From: a bacterium | Lineage (GTDB): Bacteria; Patescibacteriota; Minisyncoccia; Moranbacterales; UBA9337 | Assembly: GCA_021159185.1 (NCBI GenBank) | Contig: JAGGSH010000011.1 | Coordinates: forward strand, 12,307 to 76,306 | DNA: 64,000 bases | Direction of reading: 5' to 3' | Shown: positions 119-63,453 of the stretch, in pieces | How positions within the stretch are numbered: the stretch's first letter is position 1 | Layout: every line of letters begins with the position of its first letter | Position numbers and translations under genes: made by a program | Notes under the pieces: model-generated | Seen by the model: only the letters and a program-made list of their open reading frames with translations | The model's database searches: none | Told to the model about the DNA's origin: nothing

Positions 119-260
119 TGTCATTCCCGCGAAGGCGGGAATCTAGGATGAGAAAACGCGAATACAATGAAATAACTAGCTAACTTAGATACGCTTACAA
201 TTCCATCCTAGATTCCGGATATTTTTCTTCGCTACTGCTACAAAAAATTCCGGAATGACA
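119..260. repeat. MITE-like palindromic repeat element, family 1 (gtcattcccgcgaaggcgggaatctagg...ttccggaatgaca)
   Basis: Shares the terminal motifs gtcattcccg / cgggaatgaca and the internal agattccggata...ttccggaatgaca unit with at least 12 other loci in this window. Confidence 0.7.
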
Positions 261-314
261 CAAAGAAAGTAAATGAAAAAATATAAATAGTATTTTAAAT
301 TCAATCCAATATGT

Positions 315-671
315 TTAATCCTCAACAACGCTATTTAACATAAAATTAACTAAAGATAAAATCAAACCGAATAACAGCGCCCACCAGAAGCTGGTTACTT
401 CAAACCCCGGAACAATAATGCCGGTGAGCATTATCAACAGCGCGTTGATAATAAAAGTGAATAATCCCAGAGTTAAAACATTCAGCGGCAAAGTTAAAAT
501 TATCAGCACCGGTTTTATGAAAGCGTTTATTATTCCCAGCACAACCGCTGTCACGAACGCTGCGAAAAAGCTTAAAACGGTTACTCCGGGAAGAAGATAA
601 GCGGAAACGATAATGGCCAAAGTGGCCGCCAGCCAGCTTATAATTTTGTTTTTCATAATGATATAAATCAC
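315..671 (-). CDS. Phage-holin-family / DUF360-like 4-TM small membrane protein
   Basis: 118 aa and almost entirely hydrophobic helices. The pattern LPGV...FxxALLxGxxNAFIKPxLxxLTLP resembles the holin family 4 / YvlD-like membrane proteins. Confidence 0.55.
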   Translation of the reverse strand: MIYIIMKNKIISWLAATLAIIVSAYLLPGVTVLSFFAAFVTAVVLGIINAFIKPVLIILTLPLNVLTLGLFTFIINALLIMLTGIIVPGFEVTSFWWALLFGLILSLVNFMLNSVVED

Positions 672-860
672 TAATCAACGCTAATTTTATCCCGAATAAT
701 CTCTAATAAGCAATGATTAATTTAGATAAATTCTTATGAATAAATTATACCATAAAAATCCCCAATATCTAAGAGCGTATCATATAAACAAACCACTACT
801 ACAATATAATGTTATATTGTAGTGAGAATAATTTTTCTTATCCTACTCTCAAAGGAATTT

Positions 861-1445
861 TTAATTCACCAACTTCCGAAAATACCAATCCACATCGCTA
901 ATCCATTTATTGACGCTTTTTGGATTTTGCCCGGCGCAAGATGATCCGCATTTCCAAACAACCATTTTCCTGGGAGTGTCCAGCTTATTTTCATAAACGA
1001 GCTTGTCTATTCTGCCAGCCACCGTATTAACCGCGTCTCTGGGATTATTAAAGCAAGTGTGTCCGTCTGTTCCCATTCGTTCTCTTTTTTCTCTGTATCC
1101 CCAATAATTATAGCAGTCTTGCCCGTTAAGCACCGGCACGCGTTTTCCCCAATCGCTTTCCTTTTTGGCAATGCTCACCATAAAGGCCGCCACTTTTTCA
1201 TCCTTCCGCGCGATATAACGAGCCATATTTTCCATCGGATAGCCTGCTACCATTTCATTTATTTTATTTTCTAAATCCTTATTTACTTCAGCTTTAACCA
1301 CAATAACCTTGTTTTCTTTTTGAATATCTCGATTGAATGAATAAACAAACAGCATTAAAGAGTCTAGCAGTATAATAAGCAAAATAGCCAGAAAAGTTTT
1401 AAGGCGCGCTTCGCTTAAAAGCTTTTTAAACTTAAAATGTTTCAT
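861..1445 (-). CDS. Hypothetical membrane-anchored protein (N-terminal TM, Cys-containing extracytoplasmic domain)
   Basis: 194-aa ORF with an N-terminal hydrophobic anchor. The SIAKKESDWG motif is weakly reminiscent of lysozyme-like or transglycosylase folds, which is not decisive. Confidence 0.4.
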   Translation of the reverse strand: MKHFKFKKLLSEARLKTFLAILLIILLDSLMLFVYSFNRDIQKENKVIVVKAEVNKDLENKINEMVAGYPMENMARYIARKDEKVAAFMVSIAKKESDWGKRVPVLNGQDCYNYWGYREKRERMGTDGHTCFNNPRDAVNTVAGRIDKLVYENKLDTPRKMVVWKCGSSCAGQNPKSVNKWISDVDWYFRKLVN

Positions 1446-1597
1446 ATTCTAAAATAAAAACACAAAAACGGGCTTTCACCCGTTTTTAATTTAGCTTACC
1501 TCTATTATACACTATTTTGCGTAAAAAGCAAGTTGCGCGTTTTAAAAAGTATTGTATAATAAAAGAGTTTAAAAAACTAAAAAATAAAAACAAAAAA

Positions 1598-4500
1598 ATG
1601 AAAACAAAAAAAAGAAATGTGAAAAAAATTCTTCTGGGAAATTTTATCGGGTTGCTTATTTTATCGGGCGCCTTTTTTATTTTTTGGAAAGTTAAATTAT
1701 CTCAAGCCGGAACCATTGCTAATATAGCAGCTTCCGTTTCGGGAACGACTTACACCATAACGCTAACTCCTGAAACAACCATTCCAGTAAATGGAAAAAT
1801 TCACATACAATTCCAGCAAAATGGCGCGGAAGGCACCCAAGTTCCCGCTTCTCTCGCTAAAGGCGCCGCTACTACGGCTAATATAAGTTCCTTAACCCAA
1901 GGATCAACCAGTGAGGTTCGCGCCGAAGCGGGAAGTGAAATATCCGGAGGAACAGCCATAACCATTGAAGCGGAGGGACTGACTAATCCCGGAACGGGAA
2001 AGTATTATCTAACCGTTTGGACATCAAACGCGAACGGAGAAATACTGGACGGAACCAGCAGTCCGACATCCAGCTACCGCGCTTATTACACGATTGGCAC
2101 CCCTCTGGCTACCGGACAAGTTTTAGATCCGGACGGAAATCCTGTTCAAGGCGCTTGGGTAAACATCCATGAGTATAATAGCGCGGAAGGGCAGCCTTTC
2201 TTTGGTTATGATGACACTGACGATTTGGGATATTACGCGATTGGATCGGCCGAATACGGCGCTGTTGTTGCTAACGGAACGCAAGTAAAGATTGTTGCCA
2301 ACGCCCCGCCGGAAAATTTTCAATGGGGAATGACCGAAGAATTTATTCACACTTACAACGGATCTACCATAAGCCAGAATCTCCAATTTACTCTCCCCGT
2401 CAAAACCATTTTAGGAACGCTTACTTATTCGGACGGAGCGCCTGTAGTCGGCGCTACTATTAATTTTTGGTCTAGCGACGGAAACGGGTTCACTAATGAC
2501 ACCACCGATTCTACCGGAAGTTATTCCGCTTTAGTTAAGGGAGGAAAATGGGATGTGATGCCCCAGTCGGAATCAAGCAGTGATTGGTCGTATGGAATGC
2601 CCCCTATGAGCGTGTCTTTTGAAAAAAATACTACGGCTGAATCCCAAACAGTCAATTTTACGGTTTTAAGAGCTAATGCTACTGTGGCAGGATCAGTTCG
2701 CTTTCCTGATGGATCAATACCTTCCAATCCTGACAAATTTGGTGTTGATATCTGTTCAATGATAGGAATGGGCGCGCACGGACAACTGGACAGTAACGGA
2801 AATTTCAGCCTTAATGTTCCGGCTGGCTCTTATCAAGTGGATGTTATGGATATGGACCAGGATTATGCCGCTCCCGAAATGACACCTTTTAGTATTAGTG
2901 AAAATGAAACCGTCAATGTGGGAATGATTACTTTAATTGCCCGAGACGCCTATATCACGGGAACAATTTCGGACGAAAATGGAAATGGAATCGTTGGTAT
3001 GAGTGTTGACGCATTCAGGATAAAAGGAATGGGCTGGGGGCAAGGAACTGTCAATAATTCCGGCACGGCTTTTACTATAAAAGTTTTTCCCGGAAAATGG
3101 ATGGTAAATGTGCCTCCTTTCACGGGTGGCGGGGATAGTTATGTGTTGGATGGCAATCCCCAGCAAGTGGAAATAGCTTCGGGGGAAACAGTTACGGTTA
3201 ATATAAAACTGGTAGCGGCTACTGCCACTATTCGGGGAAGCATACTTGATACCAACGGAAATATGGTCGCTGACAGTTACGGTTTTGTTTTCGCCGACCG
3301 CGCCGGAACAGCTCCTTTTATGGGACCCGGACTGGGTGGTACGGTTAGTCGAGGTAGCTATACTGTCAGTGTCCCTCCCGGAACTTACAATGTGGGAATG
3401 GGAATGATGCCGGGATCTGATTATTCAGCCGGAGAGCCAACCGAAATAACCGTTACTGACAATCAAACTGTCACTAATAATATTACCGTCTATGAAAATG
3501 ATATGACTGTTTCCGGGGAAATTAGAGATGAGAATGGAAATAAGGTTACTAACGCTTTTATGGAAATATTCGCTACCAATAACACCGGCGCTTGGCAAAA
3601 CGCTTTCGTAAATCAGGCGGATGGAACTTATTTATTGAATTTATCGTCAGCGGTTGATCCTTGGAGTTTGGGATACTTCATTGACCCGTCCACCGGATAT
3701 TTTTCAGAAAAATTAACCGATAATTCTATTTCGGGAAACTCCGGCGACACCCTGACTAAAAATATAACTATCCGCCGGGCTGACGCTACAATTTCCGGGC
3801 GGGTATTGGACGGGAACGGTAACCCGATGGAAGGAGTTAAAGTATTCGCGGACAACAGAAGCAGTTCCCATGAAAGAGACGAGGCTATGTTTATGGGACC
3901 GATGTTTATGAACGACAATGTTTCAAATTCCAACGGAGAATTTACTATCCAAGTGCCCTGCGGAACTTATTTCGTGAACGCTTCTCTCCCCCGTTCCAGC
4001 CGTCCGGATCTTATCAATCCTGATAGAATCGAGGTGGTCTTGGAAGAAAACCAAACCATAAGCGGAATTGAGCTGGCATTTAAGCAATCTGATTCAACTA
4101 TAAGCGGAACAGTTGCTTTAGACGGCGCATCCAATGGAAACGCTTATGTCTGGGCTTGGTCCGAAAGCGGAGGCTATAACGAAGCCGAAGCGGAAGATGA
4201 TGGAAGCTTTATTCTTAATGTTACTCAAAACGACACTTGGCATATAGGAGTTAACAACGATGTTGAAGGTTCAACTGATTATGTAAAATCCGGCGAAGAA
4301 GTTATTGAAACGGAAGACCAAGCGGCTATTACCCAAAACATTAATCTGGAAACAGTCAGTGATGGATTGGCCGATCCTCTTTCCACGACATTTTCTTCAA
4401 CTAATTCAAAGGTGGCTAACTTAAGCGACGGTTCAAGAATATCTATTCCCGCCAATGCTATGGGAACTAGCGGGAATGTTACTTTAAACGCTTCCACCAC

Positions 4501-10360: not shown

Positions 10361-11710
10361 GTGCCAATTACTCATCTAAAATGTTTATATAAGCTGATCG
10401 CTATGCTTTATAAAATACTTTTATTTTTTTGCCTGTATCTTCCTTTTCAGCTGGCTCTAAATCCGGCGGAAGGAATTGATTTGGCGTCGGGAAGGGCGGT
10501 AATTTTGTTTTTGTTTTTCTTCTGGATAGTTCGGGGGCTTAAAAATAAAAAAATAATAATTGCTCCAAGAATTCAAACGCTTTTAATTATTTCCTTTTTG
10601 TTTTTAAGCGCTTTTTCTCTGATGGTTTCCCAGAATTTAGAATGGTCGCTTCGTAAATTATTCTTTTTACTTTCCATATTCCCGCTTTATTTTATAATTT
10701 CGGGAATTGAATTTAGCAGTGGGAAAATAAAGAAAATAACTCAATGTTTAGTATGGGGAGCGGGATTAGCCGGGCTTTTGGGAATCTTCCAGTTTTTAAT
10801 CCAGTTCTTTTTTGGAATAAAGAAAACTTTTGAATTCTGGGCGGCGGTTATTACTCCTTTCTTAGGCGATGCTTTCGCGCAAGCGGTTTTAGAAAATCCC
10901 AGTTGGCTGGTTAATATCGGCGGGCAGAATTTTCTTCGCGCTACGGCTTTTTTCCCCGATCCGCATATGTTTTCCTTTTATTTAAATATGGCTTTTTTTC
11001 TAGCTCTAGGATTATGTTTTACAAAATTTAAAAATAAAAAAACTTACTTATTTTTAGCCGGAATTATTTTACTGGCGGACTTGCTCACTTTTTCCCGAGG
11101 CGGCTATATCGGTTTGTTGGCGGGAATAATTTTCAGCATATTGTTATTTTGGAAAAAAGCAGGCGTAAGTTATAAAAAAATATTAGCGGGCGGAATAATT
11201 TTTTTAGGACTAATTATAATTATTCCCAATCCTATCGGGAAAAGGCTGATTTCCAGTTTTGACTTAAATGAAGGATCCAACCAAGGGCGAATAGAAACCT
11301 GGAAAAATTCCATAGAGGTGGTAAAAAATAATCCTGTTCTGGGCGTGGGTTTAGGCGGATATTCTCTGGAAATAAAGCCCAGCGCTGATTATCGGGAGCC
11401 GATTTATTCTCATAATATTTATCTGGACATCGCGGCAGAAACGGGAATTTTAAATAGTTTAATTTGGGCAGGGATAATATTGGCGGCTATTTCTTCTTTT
11501 TTAAAGAAGAGGAAAAACGCGGATGGTTTAAAATATATTTATATCGCCATGGCAGCCGGACTAACCGCTTTTTCCGTTCATTCTTTTTTTGAAACCGCCT
11601 TATTTTCCGCGCGGGTTCTGCCGTTAGTGGTTATTTTAATTGCCTTAAGCGCTTTAAATCGCAAGTTTTTTTTATGCCATTCCCGTCCGTCGCAGCGGAC
11701 GAGGATTTAG
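10361..11710 (+). CDS. O-antigen ligase / Wzy_C-family polytopic membrane protein
   Basis: More than 10 TM. TFSRGGYIGLLAGIIF and YSHNIYLDIAAETGILN (the HN..L....E.G motif) are typical of Wzy_C. The start may be the internal MLYKILLFF at about 10403. The C-terminal codons run into a repeat element. Confidence 0.6.
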   Translation: MPITHLKCLYKLIAMLYKILLFFCLYLPFQLALNPAEGIDLASGRAVILFLFFFWIVRGLKNKKIIIAPRIQTLLIISFLFLSAFSLMVSQNLEWSLRKLFFLLSIFPLYFIISGIEFSSGKIKKITQCLVWGAGLAGLLGIFQFLIQFFFGIKKTFEFWAAVITPFLGDAFAQAVLENPSWLVNIGGQNFLRATAFFPDPHMFSFYLNMAFFLALGLCFTKFKNKKTYLFLAGIILLADLLTFSRGGYIGLLAGIIFSILLFWKKAGVSYKKILAGGIIFLGLIIIIPNPIGKRLISSFDLNEGSNQGRIETWKNSIEVVKNNPVLGVGLGGYSLEIKPSADYREPIYSHNIYLDIAAETGILNSLIWAGIILAAISSFLKKRKNADGLKYIYIAMAAGLTAFSVHSFFETALFSARVLPLVVILIALSALNRKFFLCHSRPSQRTRI

Positions 11711-11714
11711 GAAA

Positions 11715-11912
11715 GTGTCATTCCTATGAAGCTTATCCTCAACTTGATCGGGGAACGGGAATCCAGAATGTCATTCCCGCGAAAGCGGGAATCCAGAACA
11801 TTAATAAAAAAAATTAGTAATTCTATTCTAGATTCCCGCCTACGCGGGAATGACATAAAAAAGTCGGGAATGACATAAAAAAGTCGGGAATGACAGAAAA
11901 AAGTCGGGAATG
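11715..11912. repeat. Cluster of family-1 MITE-like elements with tandem gtcgggaatgacataaaaaa units
   Basis: gtcattcc...gggaatccagaatgtcattcccgcgaaagcgggaatccaga...attcccgcctacgcgggaatgacat, followed by three copies of aaaaagtcgggaatgaca. Confidence 0.7.
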
Positions 11913-11953
11913 GCAAAAAGAAGAGATAAGAATGGCATTAAAGAATATCACAG

Positions 11954-19009: not shown

Positions 19010-19188
19010 ATGTCATTCCGGAATTTTTTCTGAAACGCAGCGGAAGAAAAAATATCCGGAATCTAGAATTAATTTACAAAACTTTCTTTATGTCATTCCC
19101 GACTTGATTGGGAATCTTTCTTTTGTTTTACGCGTAGATTCCGGATAAATTTCTCTGTTGCTACTCCGAAATTTTCCGGAATGACAAC
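19010..19188. repeat. Family-1 MITE-like elements (two adjacent units plus the tacgcgtagattccggata...ttccggaatgaca unit)
   Basis: tgtcattccggaat..., tgtcattcccgacttgattgggaatc, and cgcgtagattccggataaatttctctgttgctactccgaaattttccggaatgaca. Confidence 0.7.
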
Positions 19189-20198: not shown

Positions 20199-20284
20199 TG
20201 TCATTCCCGACTTGATCGGGAATCCAGAATGAAATCACTGACTTCAAAAATTACTCTAGATTCCCGCCTGCGCGGGAATGACAT
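20199..20284. repeat. Family-1 MITE-like element (canonical ~85-bp unit)
   Basis: gtcattcccgacttgatcgggaatccagaatgaaatcactgacttcaaaaattactctagattcccgcctgcgcgggaatgacat. Confidence 0.75.
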
Positions 20285-30274: not shown

Positions 30275-30337
30275 TTACGCGTAGATTCCGGATATTTTTT
30301 CTTTCGCTGTCACTTTAGAAAAAATTCCGGAATGACA
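30275..30337. repeat. Family-1-related element (tacgcgtagattccggatat...aaaattccggaatgaca)
   Basis: Third copy of the unit also seen at 200-260 and 19125-19188. Confidence 0.65.
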
Positions 30338-30437
30338 TGGGGAAAGTAAGCGAAAAACTGTAAACAACGCCGTGAAATATAACACAAAAATCTATTCGTA
30401 TATTCGTATTTTAATTAGTAATCAGTAAAGAGTTACT

Positions 30438-34440: not shown

Positions 34441-34524
34441 TGTCATTCCCGACTCGGTCGGGAATCTAGAATAAAATCGCTGGCTTAAAAAATTACTCTA
34501 GATTTCCGTTTTCGCGGGAATAAC
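34441..34524. repeat. Family-1 MITE-like element
   Basis: tgtcattcccgactcggtcgggaatctagaataaaatcgctggcttaaaaaattactctagatttccgttttcgcgggaataaca. Confidence 0.7.
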
Positions 34525-34545
34525 AAGGGAAAATATTAACATTTT

Positions 34546-46520: not shown

Positions 46521-46573
46521 TGTCATTCCCGCGAAACTTGTCCTCGGTTCCGATCGGGGAGCGGGAATCTAGA
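46521..46573. repeat. Family-1 MITE-like element (short unit)
   Basis: tgtcattcccgcgaaacttgtcctcggttccgatcggggagcgggaatctaga. Confidence 0.65.
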
Positions 46574-51629: not shown

Positions 51630-51715
51630 TGTCATTCCCGACCCAGTCGGGAATCCAGGATAAAATCGCTAACTTAAAAAGATATTCTGGATTCCCGCTT
51701 GCGCGGGAATGACAT
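51630..51715. repeat. Family-1 MITE-like element
   Basis: gtcattcccgacccagtcgggaatccaggataaaatcgctaacttaaaaagatattctggattcccgcttgcgcgggaatgacat. Confidence 0.75.
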
Positions 51716-51819: not shown

Positions 51820-54117
51820 TTATATTCTTTCCAGCGGAGCGTAGGTGGCGGAAAGTTTCTTAATTCCGGTTTTCATAAAAGCTATGGTAATAATATCATC
51901 TTGCGTGGAAATAACCACTCCTTCGCCAAAATCCGGATGGCGGACGCGCTGGCCATCGCTGTAACTCGTAACTCGGGATGGTTTGAATTCTTTTAGGTCA
52001 TGGTTATTTTGATTTGAGATTTGTTTGGGATTTGAAGTTTGGGATTTAGAATCTGTTTGGAAATTGGAAATTGGAAATTGGAAATTCCGCACAAGGTGCG
52101 GCGGTATATCATCCAAAAACCGCGATGGCGGGTTGGCTTGGGTTGATCCGAAAATTACGCGCATTTCCGCGTGGAGAAGACAGACTTTTTCTTTGGCGCG
52201 GGTAATTCCCACATACATCAGCCTTCTCTCTTCCTCCATTTCATCCGCGTTTAACATACTGCGGGAATGCGGCAGAATTCCTTCTTCTAGCCCCGCGATA
52301 AAAACAATGGGGAATTCCAAACCTTTAGCGCTGTGCAGGGTCATTAAATGAACTGTGTCTTGATTTTGGTCAATATTATCTGTGTCCGCCACCAGCGCCA
52401 CTTCTTCCAAAAATAATTCCAAAGACATATTGGCGTTTTCGCCCCGATGTTTTTCAGCTACGCTCAAAAGTTCCCGCACATTTTCTATTCGCGTCTCTCC
52501 TTCAATTCCCATTTTCTCCAAGCTAGTTTCGTAACCGCTGCCTTTAAAAATTTTCTCAATCAAATTAGCTAATCCGGCTCTGTCTTTAAAATCTCTCATT
52601 TGAAAAATAAAATCACAGAACTGCTTAATTGCTTTAATTTTAGCTTCTTTTAATTCTGAATTTTGAGGGCTGATTTTAGCGCTTGCGTCCAGTAAGTTCA
52701 GATCGTTTTCTTTGGCGAAAGCCGCCCATTTTGCTAAAGTTTTTTTTCCAATGCCCCGCCGCGGTTCGTTAATAATCCGTTCCAAAGAAATATAATCGTT
52801 TCCGTTTTGAATAACGCGGAGGTAAGCGACAATATCTTTAATTTCTTTTCTTTGATAAAATTTCAGCCCGCCGATAATGCGATAGGGGATAGATTCTTTC
52901 AGGAAAATTTCCTCTATAATTCTTGATTGGGCGTTGGTGCGGTATAAAACCGCGAAATCGGAATAATTATATTTCTTATTTTTATCGCTAACTTTATTTT
53001 TAATTTCCTCGGCAATAAATTCAGCCTCGTCTTTTTCGTCGTTAGCCTCATAAACAGCCACGGGATGCCCTTTTTTATTTTCCGTCCACACTTTCTTGTC
53101 CTTGCGGTTTACATTTTTGGAAATTATTTCATGGGCCGCGTCTAAAATAATTTGAGTAGAGCGATAATTTTGTTCCAATTTAATAACCTTGGCGCCGGGA
53201 TAATCTTTTTCAAAACTTAAAATATTTTTAATATCCGCTTGTCTAAACATATAAATTGATTGCCAGTCATCACCCACGACGCAGAGATTGCGGTGTTTTT
53301 GGGAAAGCAGTTTTACCAAAAGGTATTGGGCGTGGTTGGTATCCTGGTATTCGTCCACTAAAATATAGCGGAATAAATTTTGGTATTTTGCCAGCACTTC
53401 GGGAAATTCCTGGAATATTTTCACCGCAAGCCGTATTAAATCGTCAAAATCCAGAATATTATTTTTTTTAAGCTCTTCTTGGTAAGCGTTGTAAACTTTA
53501 GCAACAGTTTCTTCGTAAAATCCTTCCGCTTGCCGGGAAAACGCTTCCTCGTCAATAAATTTATTTTTAGCTTCGCTGATAGCGGTTAAAAATGACGCGG
53601 GATTAAATTGGTCTTTACTGATACTCAATTCTTTAAAAATTCTTTTTACTAAAGCTAATTGGTCTTGAGCGTCAAAAATATTAAAAGATTTTTTGTATCC
53701 CAGTTTGTCTATTTCCCGCCGCAAAATTCTGGCGCAAACGCTGTGGAAAGTGCCAACAGTAGGTAGTTTGTAGCTTGTAGTTTGTATCTTAGGATTTGAA
53801 AATTGAGAATTGGAAATTTTACTTGTTGCTTGCCTGCCTGCCGGCGAGGCAGGCTGCTTACTTCTTGCTTCTAACAATTTGGCAATTCTTTCCTTCATTT
53901 CTTGGGCGGCTTTGTTGGTAAAAGTTACCGCCAGAATATTAAGCGGATTTATTTTCTTCTTTTTTATTAAATAAGCCACCCGATGGGTGAGTGTTCTGGT
54001 TTTTCCCGATCCGGCTCCGGCGATAATCAAAACGGGGCCCTCTGTGGCCTTGACCGCTTCTTGTTGCGCGGAATTGAGATTTTTGAGCAGATCGTTCATA
54101 ATTTTATGATATATCAT
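51820..54117 (-). CDS. pcrA: ATP-dependent DNA helicase PcrA/UvrD family, with a repeat-derived internal insertion and a low-complexity C-terminal tail
   Basis: IIAGAGSGKTRTLTHRVAYLI (Walker A), DEYQDTN, and the other helicase motifs. The insertion QPASPAGRQATSK is encoded by the 27-bp GC hairpin also found in rpsA. The C-terminal FQFPISNFQ comes from the ggaaattggaaatt tandem repeat at 52040-52085. Confidence 0.9.
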   Translation of the reverse strand: MIYHKIMNDLLKNLNSAQQEAVKATEGPVLIIAGAGSGKTRTLTHRVAYLIKKKKINPLNILAVTFTNKAAQEMKERIAKLLEARSKQPASPAGRQATSKISNSQFSNPKIQTTSYKLPTVGTFHSVCARILRREIDKLGYKKSFNIFDAQDQLALVKRIFKELSISKDQFNPASFLTAISEAKNKFIDEEAFSRQAEGFYEETVAKVYNAYQEELKKNNILDFDDLIRLAVKIFQEFPEVLAKYQNLFRYILVDEYQDTNHAQYLLVKLLSQKHRNLCVVGDDWQSIYMFRQADIKNILSFEKDYPGAKVIKLEQNYRSTQIILDAAHEIISKNVNRKDKKVWTENKKGHPVAVYEANDEKDEAEFIAEEIKNKVSDKNKKYNYSDFAVLYRTNAQSRIIEEIFLKESIPYRIIGGLKFYQRKEIKDIVAYLRVIQNGNDYISLERIINEPRRGIGKKTLAKWAAFAKENDLNLLDASAKISPQNSELKEAKIKAIKQFCDFIFQMRDFKDRAGLANLIEKIFKGSGYETSLEKMGIEGETRIENVRELLSVAEKHRGENANMSLELFLEEVALVADTDNIDQNQDTVHLMTLHSAKGLEFPIVFIAGLEEGILPHSRSMLNADEMEEERRLMYVGITRAKEKVCLLHAEMRVIFGSTQANPPSRFLDDIPPHLVRNFQFPISNFQTDSKSQTSNPKQISNQNNHDLKEFKPSRVTSYSDGQRVRHPDFGEGVVISTQDDIITIAFMKTGIKKLSATYAPLERI

Positions 54118-54195
54118 TCCCGCCCGCCGCGGCGGACGGGAATCTGGAGTACTTATTTAGACCAGCGATTATATCCTAGATTCCCGATCAAGTCG
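54104..54195. repeat. Family-1 MITE-like element
   Basis: tcattcccgcccgccgcggcggacgggaatctggag...tcctagattcccgatcaagtcgggaatgaca. Confidence 0.7.
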
Positions 54196-54319
54196 GGAAT
54201 GACAAAAATATTTCCCACAACCATTATAGCATACTGCCAAATGAGAAAATTGTTAAATAAAAAAAGCTAAGCTTCTGCATAGAAATTTAGCTTTTTTATA
54301 TGTTACGCTGTCACTCTTT

Positions 54320-55096: not shown

Positions 55097-55691
55097 TAAT
55101 TAATTTTATCTTTTGAGTTATTTTTTTTGAGTCAAATTTTCTTAAATAGTTATTTAATTTGCCACAGCCTATTGTTTCCTTAAAAACTTCCTTATTAAGC
55201 CTTAATTCATAAACATCGTTTTTATTAACTATATCGTTCCTAAAATACAAAAAATCCAGTAAAGCTTTTTCCGGATCGGCGATTTTAAAGGAAATTTTTT
55301 CATTTTTAATTAACCTATAACCAAAAAATAGTTCTGTTTTAATATTGCGATATGAAAAGTTTCCAATTTCCGATTTTATCATTCTTGTTTTTTTTGTGGT
55401 AACGGAAGTGTACAAAAAAACAGTTTCCGGAATTAAATTATAGTAACTCAAAGCGTATTCAAGACTTAGATAAGATGGTTCGTAAAGCTTGTTGGATATA
55501 AAATTCATTTCAAAATCAGATAATTGCTTGTCGGCAAAAATATAAAAATTATTGGCTACTTTTTTCAAATAATGCTTTTTTTGCCATTCATACAAGCGGC
55601 GATGATCAAAATCGCTCTCCGCATTTTTAATATCCGATAAATGAATAATCGGATATTCCTTGAAGTGATTAGAAAAGTCAATGTATTTCAT
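55077..55691 (-). CDS. AbiEi-family antitoxin (second copy), overlapping the toxin gene by 20 nt
   Basis: Roughly 200 aa, positioned upstream of and overlapping the AbiEii gene, with the same architecture as the 38027-38635 / 37324-38037 pair. YEPSYLSLEYALSYYNLIPE parallels YSPSYISFETVLRDAGMIFQ. Confidence 0.5.
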   Translation of the reverse strand: MKYIDFSNHFKEYPIIHLSDIKNAESDFDHRRLYEWQKKHYLKKVANNFYIFADKQLSDFEMNFISNKLYEPSYLSLEYALSYYNLIPETVFLYTSVTTKKTRMIKSEIGNFSYRNIKTELFFGYRLIKNEKISFKIADPEKALLDFLYFRNDIVNKNDVYELRLNKEVFKETIGCGKLNNYLRKFDSKKITQKIKLINAYVRS

Positions 55692-56699: not shown

Positions 56700-56820
56700 T
56701 TTCTTCTCCCCCTCCTCTTTGAGGAGGGGATTGAGGGGTGGTGTTATTTCCACCAGCGATATTTCACACCCCTCCGCCCTACGGGCACCTCCCCTCAAAG
56801 AGGGGAGGAAGTAAAAGCTA
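56700..56820. repeat. GC-rich palindromic repeat (family 2-like: ctccccctcctctttgaggaggggattgagggg ... cccctcaaagaggggagg)
   Basis: Long inverted-repeat structure related to the gggga/tcccc hairpins at 22741-22800 and 22965-23012. Confidence 0.6.
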
Positions 56821-58896: not shown

Positions 58897-60948
58897 ATGA
58901 GACAAAAAACAAAAAGCAAAAAAATTAAAAAGAATAAAGTTTTAAAAAGAGCGCTGGCTTTCTTTTGCTTTTTTATTTTTGCTTTTTCTTTATTGAATTT
59001 AAATTTGGCTTTTTCGGATTTTTCAGGCAGTGGTTTGGATTTTTCTATTGTTAATGAGGCTAATGCAGGAACAGAACATATAGATTTAGCTGAAGAAAGT
59101 GGTGGCTGGTGGCCTTTTGATAACCCTTTTGTGGTGGGCATTAACTGGATACTATACGGATTTTTTAGGCTTCTTGCGCTGTTGCTTGGCATAGCCGGTT
59201 TTCTTTTTGACTGGGCGATAGACGCCAATAATATCCGGGATGTTATTCATCGGCAAGCTATTTATGACGCTTGGAAAATGGTAAGGGATTTTCTTAATTT
59301 GGGATTTATTTTAATTCTTTTATATTCGGCTTTTTGCACTATATTTCAAATAGAAAAGTATCATCTTAAAAAAATTCTTTTGATGCTAGTGCTAATGGCG
59401 CTTTTGGTTAATTTCAGTTTTCCCATTTCCCGCTTTATCGTGGACGCTTCCAATGTGACTATGTATTATTTTCTGAATTCAGCTTTTAACCAGGAAGAAA
59501 CGAAAAGTTTTTCCGCCGGACTTACGGGACCTACCGGAATCGCTGATATGCTAGTTCCCAGAGAAAGTGATGGAGATTTTGATTCAGGCGGTTCTACTGT
59601 CCAGATAATGATGGCGATATTTTTCATATTTTGTTTGATGATCACTATGTTTGTGATCGCGGCCATATTTGTAATCCGCATAGTGGCGCTGGCCGTGTTG
59701 ATTATTTTTTCTTCCATCGGATTCGTGGCGGCGGTTTTCCCGGATACTAAATCGTTTGCCAATCAATGGTGGTCTAATCTTTTTAAGTACGCTTTTACTG
59801 GACCCATTTTAGTTTTTATGATGCTGATCGCCTATAATTTAATGAGAGAAATGGCCGCGGAGGGAACAAAAGAATCAATGAAGCAATACGCGCAAAATTA
59901 TGGGCACAATCCGAGCTTATTAGCCAATGCCGCTTATTTCTTTATACCTATAGTTATTCTTTGGATGGGTATTATCGCCACGCAAAAAATGGGTATTGCC
60001 GGGGCCGACTGGACGGTGAAAAAAGCTACCGGCGCCCGCGACTGGTTCGCGAAGATTCCGGTGAATACAGCAAGAGGGGCGGGGATGGCTACTGGAATCC
60101 CAGGTGGAGCAAAACAAGCAACTGAATATTATAAAAAGAAAGGTTTACCTGGCCGTTTAGGAAAAATATGGGGTTTGAGAGGAACAGACAAAAGAGAAGA
60201 ATCGGAAGCTAAATTTGAGGGGGCTTTTGTTGGAGCTGGCAAAGGGGAAACTCCGTGGGGAAGTTTGAAAGAAATGAAAAAAAGATGGGAAGGCGGAAGT
60301 AAGAGTGCTCGCGACAAACGCATCGGAGAAAAAGTTAAAGAGAATAAAGATCTCAATGTCAGTGCTTCTCAGTTATCTCAAGATCTTGGCTCTGAAAACG
60401 AAGTGGCCAAAACAGCTGCCGCTATTACTATGGCTGAAAAAGGATTGCTAACTGATATTGACAGATTTAAAAAAGCGCTGGAAGCGGTCGGAAATGATGA
60501 AGACCTAAAGAAGAAAATTATAGACAAAGCGCCGAAAGAAATAACCAGAGATGTGATAAAAGATGGTAAAAGTTTAAATACGGCGCTGACAGCGGCAGTT
60601 ATAAAAGATGAAAAGGGAAATGAAGATAAAGAAGCTACGAAGAGAGTGCAAGAAACAATCAAAGGCAAAATTAAAGCGGACAATAATGTAAAGATCCTGA
60701 TTGACTATGATGAAAGATATGGCGGTAAATCCAAAGATGATGCTTATCGCGACAATTTGGAAAAAATGTCCGCGGAAAATCTAGCTAAACAGAAAAATTT
60801 GCTTGATACCCAAGAATTTCATGAGTTCTTCTTGCGAGATAAAGCTTCTGGAGGGCTAAACGAGGATCCCGATTTCATTGCAAAGACTGCCGAAAATATG
60901 AATATGAAAGACAGGCTGGATTGGAGGAAGAGAGGATATAAGATTTAG
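58897..60948 (+). CDS. VirB6/TrbL-like polytopic membrane protein with a hydrophilic C-terminal domain (T4SS inner-membrane component candidate)
   Basis: 683 aa. Signal/TM, an extracytoplasmic loop, then 6 or more TM helices (GFFRLLALLLGIAGFLFDW, LGFILILLYSAFCTIF, LLMLVLMALLVNF, IMMAIFFIFCLMITMFVIAAIFVIRIVALAVLIIFSSIGFVAAVF, GPILVFMMLIAYNLM), and a ~300-aa charged C-terminal tail. This architecture is typical of VirB6/TrbL/PrgH-like proteins. Confidence 0.45.
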   Translation: MRQKTKSKKIKKNKVLKRALAFFCFFIFAFSLLNLNLAFSDFSGSGLDFSIVNEANAGTEHIDLAEESGGWWPFDNPFVVGINWILYGFFRLLALLLGIAGFLFDWAIDANNIRDVIHRQAIYDAWKMVRDFLNLGFILILLYSAFCTIFQIEKYHLKKILLMLVLMALLVNFSFPISRFIVDASNVTMYYFLNSAFNQEETKSFSAGLTGPTGIADMLVPRESDGDFDSGGSTVQIMMAIFFIFCLMITMFVIAAIFVIRIVALAVLIIFSSIGFVAAVFPDTKSFANQWWSNLFKYAFTGPILVFMMLIAYNLMREMAAEGTKESMKQYAQNYGHNPSLLANAAYFFIPIVILWMGIIATQKMGIAGADWTVKKATGARDWFAKIPVNTARGAGMATGIPGGAKQATEYYKKKGLPGRLGKIWGLRGTDKREESEAKFEGAFVGAGKGETPWGSLKEMKKRWEGGSKSARDKRIGEKVKENKDLNVSASQLSQDLGSENEVAKTAAAITMAEKGLLTDIDRFKKALEAVGNDEDLKKKIIDKAPKEITRDVIKDGKSLNTALTAAVIKDEKGNEDKEATKRVQETIKGKIKADNNVKILIDYDERYGGKSKDDAYRDNLEKMSAENLAKQKNLLDTQEFHEFFLRDKASGGLNEDPDFIAKTAENMNMKDRLDWRKRGYKI

Positions 60949-60968
60949 ATTATTTAAAGTTTCCGTTT

Positions 60969-61052
60969 TGTCATTCTCGTGAAAACGGGAATCCAGGATG
61001 GAATCACTAACTTCAGAAATTACTCTGGATTCCCGCCTGCGCGGGAATGACA
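60969..61052. repeat. Family-1 MITE-like element
   Basis: tgtcattctcgtgaaaacgggaatccaggatggaatcactaacttcagaaattactctggattcccgcctgcgcgggaatgacat. Confidence 0.75.
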
Positions 61053-61088
61053 TAGAGACAGAAATAATAGCAGCAAATTAAGAAAATT

Positions 61089-62204
61089 ATGTTTAAAGAA
61101 ACAAAAAATTATTCCAGCTTTTCTCCGATGATTGTTCCTGTTGCGGAAAATGAAACAGAGGAAGAGTTTTTGCTAAGATGGAAAAAATTTGACGCGTTGC
61201 CAAAAGAAATAAAAAGCAAACTCTCCGCCAGTGAAACACTGAGAGAAATGGAGAATGTAAAACGGATTTTTAATCTGGAGTTGTCGCAAGTAGCCAGTAT
61301 TTCCAGATTAATTAGAAGCTATTATTTCGGCGAAGTGAAAATAGAAAATTTTGTATCCATTCTGTCAAAAGAAATGGAAATTGATTTATCCAAAGCCCAA
61401 GAAATAGCCAAGCATATTACGGAAAAAATAATTAACCAAAGAATACAGAGTAATAGTGGCGCCGGCGACGAAGCTATCGTCAAACTTCCCATTCTTGAAG
61501 CTCTTAAAAAATATCCTAAGTTAGGCAACCAGAGAATTTCCGTCAATAATATAAAGCTCAAAATTTTTCCCGATCCAGTCAGGCCTTCCATTAAAAACTG
61601 GATCGCCGATTATCGCCAAGTTATGGGGACCGGAAATTACGGAGCCATAGAGAAAAGCAATTATTTATTTCACGGTGAGAACGCCAAAAAACTGAATTCC
61701 CAAGAACTGCAAAAGCTGTCGCTGATTTTAAAATCGCTGGACGGCCATATTCCTCTGACTATTAACGCCAAAGATCAGCAAGTAGTATTTCCGTTATTGG
61801 AAGCAAATGAAGAAGCAGCAAGAAGCAAGCATTATGCGACAAGCAAAGAATCAGAAATTAAAACGCCAAGGATGAAATATTTAGCAAAAGAAAGTAATGA
61901 ACCAGAAATTAGAAAAATAATGCCAAACAGCCAAACAGCCAAACAGCCAAATAAAAATAATACCGGCAGTTTCCGTTTTTCATCTCCCCAAACCCTTGAA
62001 TCGGAAAAGGAAGGAAAAAAGAAAATAAAAGTGGACAAGAAAGAGAAAATAGATAAAGTAAATAAAATAAATAAAGCAAGTAAGGTAAGCAAAAATCCTC
62101 GCTACTATCAAATTTATCCCATGGGAATTAATCATAATAGCGAAAAAGAAGAAAGCCGTCCAAAAACAAAAGGGAATGTCGTAAATCTTAGAGAAGATTT
62201 TTAA
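61089..62204 (+). CDS. Hypothetical soluble protein (371 aa) with a Lys-rich repetitive C-terminus
   Basis: Contains a caaacagccaaacagccaaacagcc tandem repeat (QTAKQPNK). Sits in an operon position between the VirB6-like and PrgI-like genes. Confidence 0.4.
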   Translation: MFKETKNYSSFSPMIVPVAENETEEEFLLRWKKFDALPKEIKSKLSASETLREMENVKRIFNLELSQVASISRLIRSYYFGEVKIENFVSILSKEMEIDLSKAQEIAKHITEKIINQRIQSNSGAGDEAIVKLPILEALKKYPKLGNQRISVNNIKLKIFPDPVRPSIKNWIADYRQVMGTGNYGAIEKSNYLFHGENAKKLNSQELQKLSLILKSLDGHIPLTINAKDQQVVFPLLEANEEAARSKHYATSKESEIKTPRMKYLAKESNEPEIRKIMPNSQTAKQPNKNNTGSFRFSSPQTLESEKEGKKKIKVDKKEKIDKVNKINKASKVSKNPRYYQIYPMGINHNSEKEESRPKTKGNVVNLREDF

Positions 62205-62208
62205 TATT

Positions 62209-62616
62209 ATGTTATTCAATGTCCCGCAATTTATCAATGTTGAAGATAAAATAGTCGGACCTTTTACTGGCAAGCAACTATTGTGGCTGGCCGGGCTGGG
62301 AGCCGTTCTGCTTGTTTTATGGAATGTTCTGGAAAAAGCTGTCTTTATTGTTGCCGCTATTCCCATATCCTTAATTTTTTTAGCTTTTACATTTTACCGC
62401 CCATACAATCAGTCACTCGTAAAATTCGTGGCGGCGGGAATCATGTTTCTTTTTCGTCCCAAAACCTATGTCTGGGAAAGAAAAACACTTAAAGTTAAAG
62501 TTCTTCCGGTTAAGAAAAATAAACAAGATTCGGAAATGAATAAAAATAAAGTTATAACTCCCGAAGAAATTAAAGAGCTGGCGGAAACATTAGATAGCAG
62601 GGGAGGGGAGAAATAA
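62209..62616 (+). CDS. PrgI/VirB3-like small two-TM membrane protein immediately upstream of the VirB4-like gene
   Basis: 135 aa with two adjacent TM helices (LLWLAGLGAVLLVLW, FIVAAIPISLIFLAFTFY). Starts 5 nt after the previous stop. Identified by position and topology only. Confidence 0.4.
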   Translation: MLFNVPQFINVEDKIVGPFTGKQLLWLAGLGAVLLVLWNVLEKAVFIVAAIPISLIFLAFTFYRPYNQSLVKFVAAGIMFLFRPKTYVWERKTLKVKVLPVKKNKQDSEMNKNKVITPEEIKELAETLDSRGGEK

Positions 62617-62647
62617 CAAAGAGGGATAGGTAAGAGGAAAATAATAT

Positions 62648-63340
62648 ATGGAATTTCTACACTCAAAAAAATTAGCTTTCGGCGGAAGCGGAAACAGTAC
62701 CCAGAAATATGTGGATGTGAAAGAAGTGAAAGACGATGTGATTATTTTGAAAAACGGGTCGCTAAGAGCTGTCCTTTTGGTTTCCTCTATTAATTTTGAC
62801 CTTAAATCAAGTGAGGAACAGGACGCCATAATCAGCCAATACCAGAATTTTCTTAATTCGCTTGACTTTCCCATTCAGATAATGATTAGTTCGCGGAAAT
62901 TTAATATAAAGCCTTATCTAGACCTTTTGGAAAAAAAAGAAGTTCAGCAGGAAAACGAGCTTTTAAAATTTCAGATCTCTGAATATAAAAAGTTTATTGA
63001 AAATTTGATAAAAGTTTCCAATATCGTTTCTAAATTTTTCTATATTGTGGTTCCTTTTTATCCCGTGGAGAGCCATGAGCAGGGGGCGCTGGACAAAATT
63101 ATGGCTCTATTTAATTCCCGCCAGATTGTGGCTGAAAACAAAGTCTTGTTTGAAACTTACAAAAACCAATTATGGCAAAGAGTGGACCATATTAACGCTG
63201 GGCTTAGCGGAATCGGAGTGCGTGTGACTTCGCTCAAGACCGAAGAAATAATTGAGCTTTTATATAATTCCTACAATCCTTCCGTTTTCACGAATGCCAT
63301 AATAAATAAAATAGAAGAAGTTGATCTTGAAAAACAGTAG
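62648..63340 (+). CDS. VirB4/TrbE-like ATPase, N-terminal fragment (CagE_TrbE_VirB-type), truncated before a MITE
   Basis: DDVIILKNGSLRAVLLVSSINFDLKSSEEQDAIISQYQNFLNSLDFPIQIMISSRKFNIKPYL follows the VirB4 N-terminal pattern (xDGSlxaxlxlxGxxFELxSxeE...Ln.L...iqi). No Walker A, as expected for a fragment. Confidence 0.5.
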   Translation: MEFLHSKKLAFGGSGNSTQKYVDVKEVKDDVIILKNGSLRAVLLVSSINFDLKSSEEQDAIISQYQNFLNSLDFPIQIMISSRKFNIKPYLDLLEKKEVQQENELLKFQISEYKKFIENLIKVSNIVSKFFYIVVPFYPVESHEQGALDKIMALFNSRQIVAENKVLFETYKNQLWQRVDHINAGLSGIGVRVTSLKTEEIIELLYNSYNPSVFTNAIINKIEEVDLEKQ

Positions 63341-63367
63341 ACTTGCCTAAATTAAGAAACTCTCTTT

Positions 63368-63453
63368 TGTCATTCCCGGCTTGATCGGGAATCTAGGATG
63401 GAATTGCTGGCTTTAGAAATTACTCTAGATTCCCGCTTTCGCGGGAATGACAT
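63368..63453. repeat. Family-1 MITE-like element between two VirB4-like ORFs
   Basis: gtcattcccggcttgatcgggaatctaggatggaattgctggctttagaaattactctagattcccgctttcgcgggaatgacat. Confidence 0.75.

Follow-up and report, generated by a model that had tools for sequence, protein, structure and literature searches.

Inverted pairs of hairpin repeats assigned by sequence to the Ssn-related motifs in a 64-kb window of a Moranbacteria-like CPR bacterium

Palindromic elements of the window

The window, i.e., the whole stretch of 64 kb of DNA analyzed in this work, has a GC content of 38%, and the best named relatives of its PcrA and KsgA proteins belong to Candidatus Moranbacteria / Parcubacteria / Patescibacteria. 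It harbors 12 loci of palindromic elements embedding about 25 hairpin units; in agreement with the original prediction that copies sit mostly at gene boundaries and also inside genes, 11 of the 12 loci are intergenic and one (13727-13836) lies within the ksgA reading frame. The loci and their parts are as follows:

119..260, no strand assigned: inverted pair in a convergent intergenic spacer, directly after a terminator-like hairpin (87-116)
119-146, + strand: left unit of this pair, TGTCATTCCCGCGAAGGCGGGAATCTAG
209-260, forward on the - strand: right unit of this pair, a long-loop variant, ATTCCGG...CCGGAATGACA
11673..11923, no strand assigned: cluster between two Wzy_C/O-antigen-ligase-like genes, overlapping the final codons of ORF 10361-11710
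11675-11712 and 11727-11768: degenerate long-loop units of this cluster
11769-11855: complete pair of this cluster
11843-11923: four tandem half-site units of this cluster, 20 nt each, GTCGGGAATGACATAAAAAA
13727..13836, no strand assigned: inverted pair in frame in ksgA/rsmA (ORF 13443-14468, about aa 96-131, 'VIPAQAGIQ...RGND')
13797-13820: nested 24-nt loop insert in the right hairpin of this pair
19010..19187, no strand assigned: cluster preceded by a terminator-like hairpin (18970-19003), within a convergent spacer
19011-19068, + strand: CCGG-variant unit of this cluster
19091-19117, + strand: 21-nt-stem unit of this cluster
19135-19187, forward on the - strand: CCGG-variant unit of this cluster
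20199..20283, + strand: full type A pair separating the ftsH stop from the next gene (- strand), with left 21-nt hairpin ATTCCCGACTTGATCGGGAAT, 36-nt spacer and right hairpin ATTCCCGCCTGCGCGGGAAT
30285..30338, - strand: single long hairpin of the CCGG variant, with CCGGAATGACA at its end, in an intergenic spacer between co-directional genes
34441..34525, + strand: type A pair, its right unit decayed by 3 mismatches, flanked by rpsO and an NYN-domain gene
46521..46573, + strand: single unit with a nested loop insert of about 27 nt, between TrmB-like and tyrosine recombinase genes
51630..51714, + strand: type A pair flanked by the stop of pcrA and the start of rnpA, both on the - strand
54112..54204, - strand: type A pair in opposite orientation in the pcrA 5' leader, between TATAAT box and ATG; one unit is long-looped, with a decayed tag (ATCA)
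60969..61052, + strand: pair separating a TrbL/VirB6-like gene from the following one
63368..63452, + strand: type A pair between TraC-like and VirB4-like genes

The motif CGGGAATGACA, allowing at most one mismatch, has 27 matches in the window versus 0.81 expected, a number that none of 100 shuffles attained. All loci are found with an nhmmer profile made from five of the full copies (five full copies on the + strand, one on the - strand, the remainder being variants). The copies form a single alignable family and are not too divergent to align; the full copies of family D1 (20197, 34439, 51627, 60966 and 63366) share 75-87% identity over 97 nt. All 12 loci originally predicted hold the motif at the positions proposed for them or at most about 10 nt away, the one placed at 54104-54195 really spanning 54112-54204. 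The observation of a dense family is confirmed, its count being 12 and not '13 or more'. The presence of two hairpins per element, the 'ttccggaatgaca' sub-family (209-260, 19011-19068, 19135-19187 and 30285-30338) and the tandem gtcgggaatgaca units (11843-11923, four units of 20 nt) were likewise found to be real.

The hairpin of each unit is oriented, tGTC-ATTCCCGC-loop-GCGGGAAT-CYAG: a GTC tag, read as (T/C)GTC, is followed by an 8-bp stem (ATTCCCGC/GCGGGAAT) closed by a 4-5-nt loop and then by C-Y-A-G. Most units are joined tail to tail as inverted pairs of 83-140 nt, with tags outward and spacers of 36-90 nt, and two short arrays are present (11673-11923 and 19010-19187). Folded as ssDNA, the units reach z-scores of -4 to -6.7, and the strand of an inverted doublet is able to fold as a single long hairpin. 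Among 94 distinct units, positions G2, T3, C4 and C25 are invariant; covariation, proposed at the outset as a check on the hairpins, is found in 73 cells, with two-sided changes in six of the eight stem pairs that 0 of 500 shuffles matched, in a set pre-filtered for the six outer pairs. The MITE-like architecture attributed to the elements is also borne out, since they possess terminal inverted repeats in the form of inverted terminal hairpins and have no coding capacity. No direct duplication surrounds the copies, whose flanks carry the palindrome on (TTTTA-TGTCA...TGACA-TAAAA). The idea that they might be fragments of CRISPR arrays was rejected: the copies are scattered over 64 kb in no regular array, the sole tandem run has a 20-nt period without spacers, and no cas domains were found.

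Relation to the Ssn-related motifs and linkage with ssn

Seven copies match the published 28-base NTS consensus of Neisseria exactly at 27 positions, their first base being T, not C; GTCATTCCCGCGMAVGCGGGAATCYRG has seven exact and three near matches in the window versus 0 expected. We took as Ssn-related motifs (SRMs) those sequences corresponding to CGTCATTCCCGCGMAVGCGGGAATCYRG or to HGTCWYN(0-2)YYVSBRHN(0-5)WNVSBRGN(0-2)RNCYNB, whose initial H allows the T at position 1. The degenerate SRM pattern has nine matches in the window against 0.05 in 100 dinucleotide shuffles, and the palindrome of the hairpin is bordered by oriented non-palindromic flanks, with GTC upstream and C downstream, as in SRMs; the pattern as implemented here does not cover the CCGG/long-loop variants or the six units with a 21-nt stem (ATTCCCGACTTGATCGGGAAT). 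Segment 13731-13751 is the Neisseria master REP ATTCCCGCGCAGGCGGGAATC. By these sequence comparisons, the elements are SRMs, i.e., the repeats known as NTS, and partly as dRS3, in Neisseria, and as 'CGTC-tagged REPs' in an earlier survey.

The Ssn proteins are small GIY-YIG single-strand DNA nucleases recognizing hairpin repeats (PMC11893778). According to Chenal et al. 2025 (PMC11893778), SsnA binds and cuts NTS as ssDNA only and strand-specifically; for cutting, the upstream GTC is important, and for binding, the C that follows the palindrome. Both the GTC and the trailing C are invariant in the 94 units. The Ssn biochemistry concerns four proteobacterial proteins only, the published function is the restriction of transforming ssDNA (PMC11893778), and an analogy between the repeats and IS was raised as a hypothesis only (Chenal et al. 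2025, PMC11893778). Both the repeats and the nuclease acting on them had already been described in 2025, so that the core finding is not new; what is new is the host, an uncultured Moranbacteria-like CPR bacterium, together with the high density of the repeats and one in-frame genic copy.

The 31-nt unit of the window was found in at least 119 stretches in many phyla in a scan of 185,579 species genomes, with a taxon list biased by the derivation of the pattern from the window; 36 of the 119 matches belong to CPR/Patescibacteria, where the family is abundant. The all-vs-all clustering of the ORFs of the repeat loci picked out a GIY-YIG protein of about 95 aa (Pfam PF01541, E=1e-18), whose gene lies exactly between inverted hairpins in seven units (L040, L054, L060, two in L090, L091 and L119). 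This gene is the ssn of Chenal et al. 2025. The search for a cognate enzyme originally suggested was the productive route, leading to a GIY-YIG Ssn and neither to an IS200/IS605 TnpA/RAYT nor to an IS with matching TIRs. When loci were fetched from metagenomes by the protein alone, a left tag was found within 160 nt upstream in 61/80 (mode -45) and a right tag downstream in 61/80 (mode +37), both tags being present in 47 of the 80. Hairpin-flanked ssn genes occur in other genomes including Saccharibacteria and Gracilibacteria, are often multi-copy, and in one CPR case are adapted to a TGA=Gly code (genetic code 25); the two complete hairpin-ssn-hairpin units of L090 are 85% identical. Two divergent GIY-YIG genes (L006 and L062), which adjoin tRNA genes and have no hairpin flanks, were left out of the count.

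Other recurrent ORF clusters near the repeats turned out to be housekeeping or unrelated (ABC ATPases, response regulators, glycosyltransferases, peptide deformylase and four-helix-bundle proteins), and 'pairs' of intermediate length in L075, L110, L029 and L074 were chance pairings with no ssn between them.

No ssn (single-domain GIY-YIG, cd10448) was found in the 64-kb window, in the 10 kb past its right end or in about 88 kb of the relatives' syntenic contigs, the DNA searched corresponding to perhaps 7% of a genome of about 1 Mb. The tie between the window and Ssn in its own organism is consequently indirect. The copies in the searched DNA are orphans, with neither ssn nor RAYT nearby, and they may be relics of a lost nuclease.

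Turnover of the pairs and the forces that might move them

Two questions, the mobility of the repeats and what moves them, can be approached from the gain and loss of the pairs and from the insertion within ksgA. Presence/absence was observed at four orthologous intergenic sites in relatives whose PcrA identity is about 80%. The 51630..51714 pair occupies the same site in L201 and is absent in L202 and L203, while the 54112..54204 pair is absent in L202 and is replaced by another sequence in L201. At the 60969..61052 site, which has identical flanks, L202 carries a single palindrome, TGTCATTCCCGTCTGCCGCGGCGGACGGGAATGACA, and L201 an unrelated repeat; the 63368..63452 site is occupied in the relatives by a 26-nt spacer devoid of any element. 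The 11673..11923 site corresponds in the relatives to an 84-nt spacer with a different repeat. The ksgA alleles are 259, 295, 310 and 332-347 aa long and carry none, one or both insertions, the in-frame pair being a 36-aa insert with nested variants. These comparisons show both gain and loss of the gene-less pairs at orthologous positions, and that a conserved gene can accommodate such a pair in its reading frame. Because the flanking intergenic DNA has diverged as well, the relatives yielded no clean empty site bearing a target-site signature.

The SRM elements of the window are probably the gene-less form of an IS-like unit composed of hairpin, ssn and inverted hairpin, known from many phyla, and an Ssn encoded elsewhere would act on them. 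According to this model, a unit would fold once its DNA becomes single-stranded, during replication, repair or the entry of transforming or conjugative DNA; the GIY-YIG nuclease Ssn of about 95 aa, encoded elsewhere in the genome, would bind the folded unit and would cut a few nucleotides upstream of the tag. The cutting might restrict the recombination of incoming DNA that carries repeats, as happens in N. meningitidis, or might drive the copying and loss of the repeats themselves. We infer the presence of an active Ssn in the host genome and its role as the mover of the repeats. A bolder possibility, which we regard as tentative and rather doubtful, is that hairpin-ssn-hairpin represents an autonomous transposable element of a class not formally recognized, having as its sole protein the single-strand nuclease of about 95 aa, with the gene-less pairs of the window as its MITEs, still turning over in CPR. 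The site polymorphism, the in-frame genic insertions with nested variants, the whole-unit duplicates and the code-25 copy are consistent with this idea, as are the half-site tandem arrays at element ends, possible footprints of a cut-and-rejoin reaction.

The window contains nine pattern matches and 27 tag-motif matches in 64 kb. The 2.2-Mb genome of N. meningitidis reportedly has about 350 NTS and, if this figure is right, the density in the window is close to that of pathogenic Neisseria. CPR bacteria are thought to be dependent on DNA uptake; given this presumed uptake, a hairpin system restricting ssDNA would matter biologically in these organisms.

Different forces might also have been responsible for the spreading of the pairs. 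It is possible, but unlikely, that they are REPINs copied by a single-copy RAYT (IS200/IS605-like) encoded elsewhere, the GIY-YIG genes being passengers or users of the hairpins. The inverted-doublet architecture, with a strand folding as a single long hairpin, is REPIN-like, and Neisseria ATTCCCGCGCAGGCGGGAATC REPINs have been reported with a Group 2 RAYT by Bertels and Rainey, who put forward such copying for this identical sequence; yet the tag of the units is xGTC, whereas RAYTs cleave GTAG, and in the survey of Di Nocera et al. (PMC3733652) CGTC repeats were not found to flank any tyrosine transposase. Even though a single-copy RAYT is easily missed in 7% of a genome, E. coli RayT (a Group 2 RAYT), used as a phmmer query against the 6,980 ORFs of the window plus some 200 loci carrying the repeat (about 1.1 Mb), gave no homologue at E<=10, whereas the Ssn profile has 88 hits there, and no Y1_Tnp was found among the window ORFs scanned against Pfam. 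Moreover, it is for SsnA that direct biochemical evidence on the NTS sequence exists (PMC11893778).

Quite improbable, in our opinion, is that the elements are mainly RNA-level devices, i.e., stem-loops stabilizing or attenuating mRNA like classical REPs, kept by the host with no dedicated nuclease here. Transcription would be expected at ten of the 12 loci, which are flanked by co-directional or convergent genes or belong to a 5' leader, but the orientation of the full copies relative to transcription is mixed (four sense, two antisense), and one copy is translated within ksgA. The folds are strong and one unit has a T-rich tail; T-tails are otherwise absent from the units, and a terminator scan flags one unit only (19095-19115). 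In addition, orthologous sites in close relatives are without elements, with operons unchanged, and the conservation of a non-palindromic tag and tail across phyla implies a sequence-specific protein partner. Rfam, at gathering thresholds, returned five tRNAs only, with no known RNA family over the elements. The suggestion that the copies act as transcription terminators is not supported, the units not being canonical ones, and their position 'next to terminators' holds for only two or three loci (by eye, 87-116 and 18970-19003) and not for the others. The proposed nucleic-acid-guided system is not supported either, since nothing suggests one.

That the elements mark integration hotspots is the least probable of these readings and can be given little weight: dRS3 is the integration target of Nf phages (PMC11893778) and the window has two tyrosine recombinase genes, one of them about 300 nt from a unit, but these look like ordinary XerC/D-type recombinases and are conserved in relatives without nearby elements, no IS110/Piv gene or prophage is present in the window, and such a role leaves the multiplication of the copies unexplained. 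A role as recombination hotspots, also put forward in the original prediction, would be compatible with the Neisseria literature.

Comparison with known repeat systems

Compared with classical IS-derived MITEs, the elements have the TIRs but neither a target-site duplication nor a matching transposase IS, the Pfam scan of window ORFs having given no DDE transposase. They share with REPIN-RAYT systems the inverted REP doublets, separated by a short spacer and folding into one long hairpin, which are non-coding and form vertically persistent populations. They differ from them in that the loci examined contain no RAYT gene flanked by REP and that GTAG is missing at the REP head; the tag here is xGTC and the associated gene encodes a GIY-YIG nuclease.

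The likeness to the dRS3/NIME repeats of Neisseria is closer. Both have ATTCCC-N8-GGGAAT hairpins around an AT-richer spacer of 20-100 nt and the same inverted-pair architecture as dRS3-RS-dRS3 (see, for example, Neisseria locus L046, 6752-6857). Structurally, the elements correspond to NIMEs, i.e., 20-bp dRS3 inverted repeats around 50-150-bp RS spacers, often arrayed, although their host lies outside the genus Neisseria and, according to the FAM18 genome paper, NIMEs had not been observed beyond Neisseria. The arrays here are short (11673-11923 and 19010-19187) and the spacer families are lineage-specific. With the CGTC-tagged REPs, including Rickettsia RPE-4/RPE-6 (Di Nocera et al. 2013, PMC3733652), the elements have in common a tagged stem-loop, mostly dimeric, with some genic copies; that survey, which filed dRS3 as CGTC-1, covered five phyla with no CPR and concluded that the family 'lack a dedicated transposase' (PMC3733652).

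The closest system is that of NTS/SRM and Ssn (Chenal et al., PMC11893778), to which the window is alike in sequence, in the GTC-tagged oriented hairpin, in the trailing C and in the enrichment result, and whose hairpin-ssn-hairpin unit also emerged, independently, from our analysis of other genomes. The window differs in its CPR host, CPR not being mentioned in the main text of that paper (PMC11893778), in the prevalence of inverted pairs and in having no ssn in the available DNA of this organism; it also displays additional features, namely 21-nt stems, CCGG stems, nested loop inserts, half-site tandem arrays and an in-frame genic copy.

A dense family of paired hairpins

The motif CGGGAATGACA, with at most one mismatch, has 27 matches in the window, where 0.81 would be expected, a number that no shuffle reaches, and the dense palindromic family of the original prediction is therefore real. 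A direct-repeat search revealed five copies of about 97 nt, 75-87% identical (starting at 20192, 34434, 51623, 60961 and 63361), together with shorter families having common ends. The nhmmer profile built from these five copies and run on the window added a sixth full copy on the opposite strand (54110-54207) and recovered every locus listed previously; the total is 12 loci (about 25 hairpins), rather than the 13 or more initially counted. As read from the loci, the unit is tGTC-ATTCCCGC-(4 nt)-GCGGGAAT-CYAG, and the majority of units form inverted pairs, with the GTC tags outside and an AT-rich spacer of 36-90 nt between them. The following variants were observed, including, at four sites, the ATTCCGG-stem sub-family that had been anticipated.

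Variants of the hairpin unit in the window
21-nt hairpin: ATTCCCGACTTGATCGGGAAT
209-260, 19011-19068, 19135-19187 and 30285-30338: ATTCCGG...CCGGAAT stem with a long loop
13786-13836 and 46521-46573: hairpins with a nested loop insert of about 24 nt
11843-11923: four tandem 20-nt half-sites

The hairpin and its oriented tag are conserved. Among 94 distinct 28-nt units gathered from the window and from other loci, neither the GTC tag nor the trailing C varies, and the 8-bp stem exhibits compensated, both-side changes in six of its eight pairs (73 cells), which none of 500 shuffles equals. The percentage of paired positions is partly circular, since this set was pre-filtered for the six outer pairs; the filter discarded 47 sequences, not far from the figure of roughly 34 that chance alone predicts for the search pattern. 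Shuffled sequences fold much less stably than the pairs do as single-stranded DNA (z = -4 to -6.7 for the pairs), and at minimum energy the left and right units usually pair with each other to make a single long hairpin.

The idea that copies lie at gene boundaries, and also inside genes, agrees with our data: 11 of the 12 loci are intergenic (most between co-directional genes, three between convergent ones and one in a 5' leader), the remaining one falls within ksgA, and none of the 12 lies in a divergent promoter region. Their proposed proximity to terminators holds for just two or three loci, which adjoin a terminator-like hairpin; nor do the elements appear to be terminators themselves, the units having no T-tails and a terminator scan flagging one. 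There is no strand bias to speak of, because the six type-A copies (full inverted hairpin pairs) are four sense and two antisense relative to local transcription, and each pair shows one forward unit per strand.

The surrounding genes (window GC content, 38%) encode PcrA, FtsH, GyrA, RecQ, FeoB, two TrmB-like regulators, PrgI, TrbL/VirB6, LysM-CHAP, an NYN-domain protein, rubrerythrin, two XerC/D-type recombinases and two AbiEii toxin-antitoxin pairs (37324-38635 and 54320-55691). Gene content and GC content alike indicated a CPR bacterium. Among named lineages, PcrA and KsgA are closest to those of Candidatus Moranbacteria, the Parcubacteria group and Patescibacteria (about 50-62% identity); identity rises to about 80-90% in a few metagenome relatives. 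The window sequence itself also occurs in Logan, JGI, ENA and NCBI assemblies. A type IV secretion-like cluster (TrbL/VirB6, PrgI, a TraC-like protein and a VirB4-like ATPase) spans 58897-63340 and continues into the sequence beyond the right end (L204, 10852-12672); three hairpin loci sit in its short intergenic spacers. Six palindromes of a different kind, (A/T)ATGTTCCACGTGGAACA(A/T)T, are placed around the gene of a TrmB-like regulator (45437-46276) between 45161 and 46734, next to a tyrosine recombinase gene (46886-47704), and resemble operators or sites of recombination.

Gain and loss among close relatives

Copies have been gained and lost among close relatives. Two sets of syntenic contigs (L201/L207 and L202/L203/L206), whose PcrA is about 80% identical to that of the window, keep its gene order for more than 20 kb; four intergenic sites differ.

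Intergenic sites compared between the window, L201 and L202/L203
pcrA-rnpA spacer: window, pair; L201, same pair with near-identical spacer; L202/L203, 55-nt spacer, element absent
pcrA leader: window, pair between the TATAAT box and the ATG; L201, about 215 nt of other sequence; L202/L203, TATAAT-gattgtggagaaaaaaatt-ATG, element absent
TrbL-next gene: window, pair; L201, unrelated palindromic repeat; L202/L203, single palindrome TGTCATTCCCGTCTGCCGCGGCGGACGGGAATGACA, flanks identical
downstream of the TraC-like gene: window, pair; L201 and L202/L203, 26-nt spacer

Judging by the lone palindrome of L202, an internal deletion may convert a pair into a single long-loop unit, or the conversion may run the other way. 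No target-site duplication was seen at the copies, the flanks of which just extend the palindrome (TTTTA-TGTCA...TGACA-TAAAA). The PcrA of L202 (10001-13423) and L203 (2873-6295), 1,140 aa long, contains an intein (Pfam Intein_splicing), the 765-aa PcrA of the window being intein-free.

Turnover is clearest in ksgA (13443-14468). The ORF is unbroken and matches solved KsgA structures over three blocks, with two extra segments, the first being a hairpin pair read in frame ('VIPAQAGIQ...RGND') and the second a copy of a separate 59-nt repeat. Orthologues 81-93% identical hold differing combinations of these inserts.

Alleles of ksgA
259 aa: neither insert
295 aa: hairpin pair alone
310 aa: hairpin pair plus an extra 7- and 8-aa insert
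332-347 aa: both inserts

The right hairpin loop of the window ksgA also carries an extra 24-nt insert, CCCCGATCGGAGCCGAGGACAAGC (13797-13820), that L207 does not have; the same sequence lies, as reverse complement, in another loop at 46538-46564, and similar 'GAGGACAAGC'-type inserts occupy hairpin loops of unrelated phyla (L101, L043, L071, L176, L109). These inserts point to a second small element or a favoured loop extension.

The 59-nt repeat belongs to a second palindromic family, AAAACTCCCCCTTTGGAAAAGAGGGAAAGCGAGCGAAGCGAAGCAGGGGGATTTGAAAA, with two exact copies, at 13229-13287 (the 3' end of a Wzy_C ORF) and 14168-14226 (in frame within ksgA), and related copies at 22753-22794, 26228-26269 and 56704-56745, in the Wzy-Wzy spacer of L206 and L207 and in L201 (about 3070-3130). 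In relatives it fills intergenic sites that hold Ssn-type hairpins in the window; at such sites, therefore, one family stands in for the other.

A nuclease gene linked to the repeat

The window's 31-nt unit, TGTCATTCCCGN{6,7}CGGGAATCYAGRAT, was scanned in 185,579 species (one genome each) and matches at least 119 stretches. The GC content of the 119 matches listed ranges from 26 to 68%, and 36 of them come from CPR (Saccharibacteria, Paceibacterota, Moraniibacteriota, Falkow-, Wolfe-, Doudna-, Gracili-, Portnoy-, Magasanikii- and Peribacteria); others belong to Planctomycetota, Nitrospirota, Desulfobacterota, Omnitrophota, Verrucomicrobiota, Chloroflexota, Bacteroidota, Armatimonadota and alpha-, beta- and gammaproteobacteria, Neisseria and Rickettsia among them. 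A Moraniibacteriota locus (L031) holds an entire type-A pair, spacer included, 88% identical to the window's.

All-against-all clustering of every ORF in the repeat-matching loci revealed a sole recurrent non-housekeeping family, a protein of about 95 aa with a GIY-YIG domain (Pfam, E=1e-18), here called Ssn. Its gene lies exactly within an inverted hairpin pair in the following loci, and the flanked proteins are 63-79% identical between phyla.

Loci with ssn inside an inverted hairpin pair
L040: Armatimonadota
L054: Micavibrio
L060 and L119: Saccharibacteria
L091: Gracilibacteria
L090: Bdellovibrionales, two copies

The linkage is reciprocal across phyla, CPR included. In 80 metagenome loci chosen by protein relative alone, a left tag lies within 160 nt upstream of ssn in 61 (mode -45), a right tag within 160 nt downstream also in 61 (mode +37), and both in 47. 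Consecutive left-tag/right-tag pairs fall into two length classes, gene-less (60-170 nt) and gene-carrying (358-416 nt); the window elements belong to the former, and their pair architecture is common to the ssn-bearing units. CPR homologues were found by protein search in the Patescibacteria group, Portnoybacteria and Staskawiczbacteria, and through repeat loci in Saccharibacteria and Gracilibacteria.

Several side observations concern these units. The protein search gave at least 8,000 candidates, many on contigs shorter than 2 kb, which fits a very large, often multi-copy and assembly-breaking family. The hairpin-flanked ssn of L091 (5186-5470, Candidatus Gracilibacteria MAG JAQTWP010000001.1) contains four in-frame TGA codons, at glycine positions of its relatives (NGTLYIGVT, KNG, GF), and reads through without interruption in genetic code 25; the element is therefore adapted to, or long resident in, a recoded lineage. 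The two complete units of L090 (2860-3265 and 5330-5730), 2.5 kb apart, are 85% identical along the full ~400 nt, ends included: duplication involves the entire unit. Gene-less pairs of 147 nt are abundant in this MAG (L079, L109). Half-site tandem arrays occur in 11 places, several right beside ssn genes (window 11843-11923; L141 1795-1880 and 1262-1365; L176, two; L124 1802-1846; L150 136-207; L130, L164, L099, L120). Each array has 3-6 units, repeating every 18-21 nt, and a unit comprises a stem arm, the GTC tag and 6-9 nt of outside flank. All arrays border a complete hairpin on the hairpin's outer side, and they may be footprints left by the cutting or repair reaction.

Known relatives and the probable mechanism

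The window repeat looks like the dRS3 repeat of Neisseria. According to the FAM18 genome paper, dRS3 (ATTCCCNNNNNNNNGGGAAT) flanks RS spacers (NIMEs), which were unseen outside Neisseria (PMC1797815). Bertels and Rainey assigned the Neisseria master REP, ATTCCCGCGCAGGCGGGAATC, to a Group 2 RAYT, and this exact 21-mer occurs at 13731-13751. Di Nocera et al. classed dRS3 among the 'CGTC-tagged REPs', a super-family that 'apparently lacks a dedicated transposase' (PMC3733652). Chenal et al. (2025) described a 28-nt motif, the NTS (CGTCATTCCCGCGMAVGCGGGAATCYRG), a degenerate 'Ssn-related motif' (SRM), and a motif-flanked gene encoding SsnA, a single-domain GIY-YIG nuclease that binds and cuts the motif solely as single-stranded DNA and solely on one strand (PMC11893778). 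The hairpin is cut a few nt upstream of the tag; cutting depends on bases upstream of the palindrome and binding on the C after it, ssnA deletion increases transformation by NTS-bearing DNA about five-fold, and NTS-ssnA-NTS resembles an insertion sequence (PMC11893778). The NTS core has seven exact and three near matches in the window (0 expected), and the SRM pattern nine, against 0.05 in 100 dinucleotide shuffles. We are highly confident that the window elements belong to the NTS/SRM-Ssn family.

A cognate transposase had been suggested. None of any kind was found among window ORFs of at least 100 aa, and E. coli RayT (Group 2 RAYT) gave zero matches at E<=10 among 6,980 ORFs of the window and about 200 loci carrying the repeat. 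Nor did tblastn and an Ssn profile, which matches 88 ORFs in other loci, find ssn in the window, in the 10 kb past its right end (L204) or in about 88 kb of the relatives' syntenic contigs; the window copies are thus orphans. The explanation that we consider likely is that they are SRMs acted on by a cognate Ssn encoded elsewhere in the genome; that such an enzyme is active in this host has an even or slightly better chance. Ssn would then act on the window copies in the Moranbacterales host, and their spread would be due to Ssn-dependent cutting rather than to a RAYT or plain recombination. Because the forward units of a pair lie on opposite strands with tags outward, Ssn would nick each strand just outside the element; such nicks could, speculatively, allow the pair to be excised or copied in its entirety.

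Elements of this kind are already known (dRS3/NIME since 2000, CGTC-REPs in 2013, NTS/SRM-Ssn in 2025). The main text of Chenal et al. mentions neither MITE, tandem, Patescibacteria nor Candidatus (PMC11893778). Relative to that text, what appears modestly new is a CPR host with a high repeat density (nine SRM-pattern and 27 tag-motif matches in 64 kb), the predominance of gene-less inverted pairs, the site polymorphism and in-frame genic copy, the nested loop inserts and the half-site tandem arrays.
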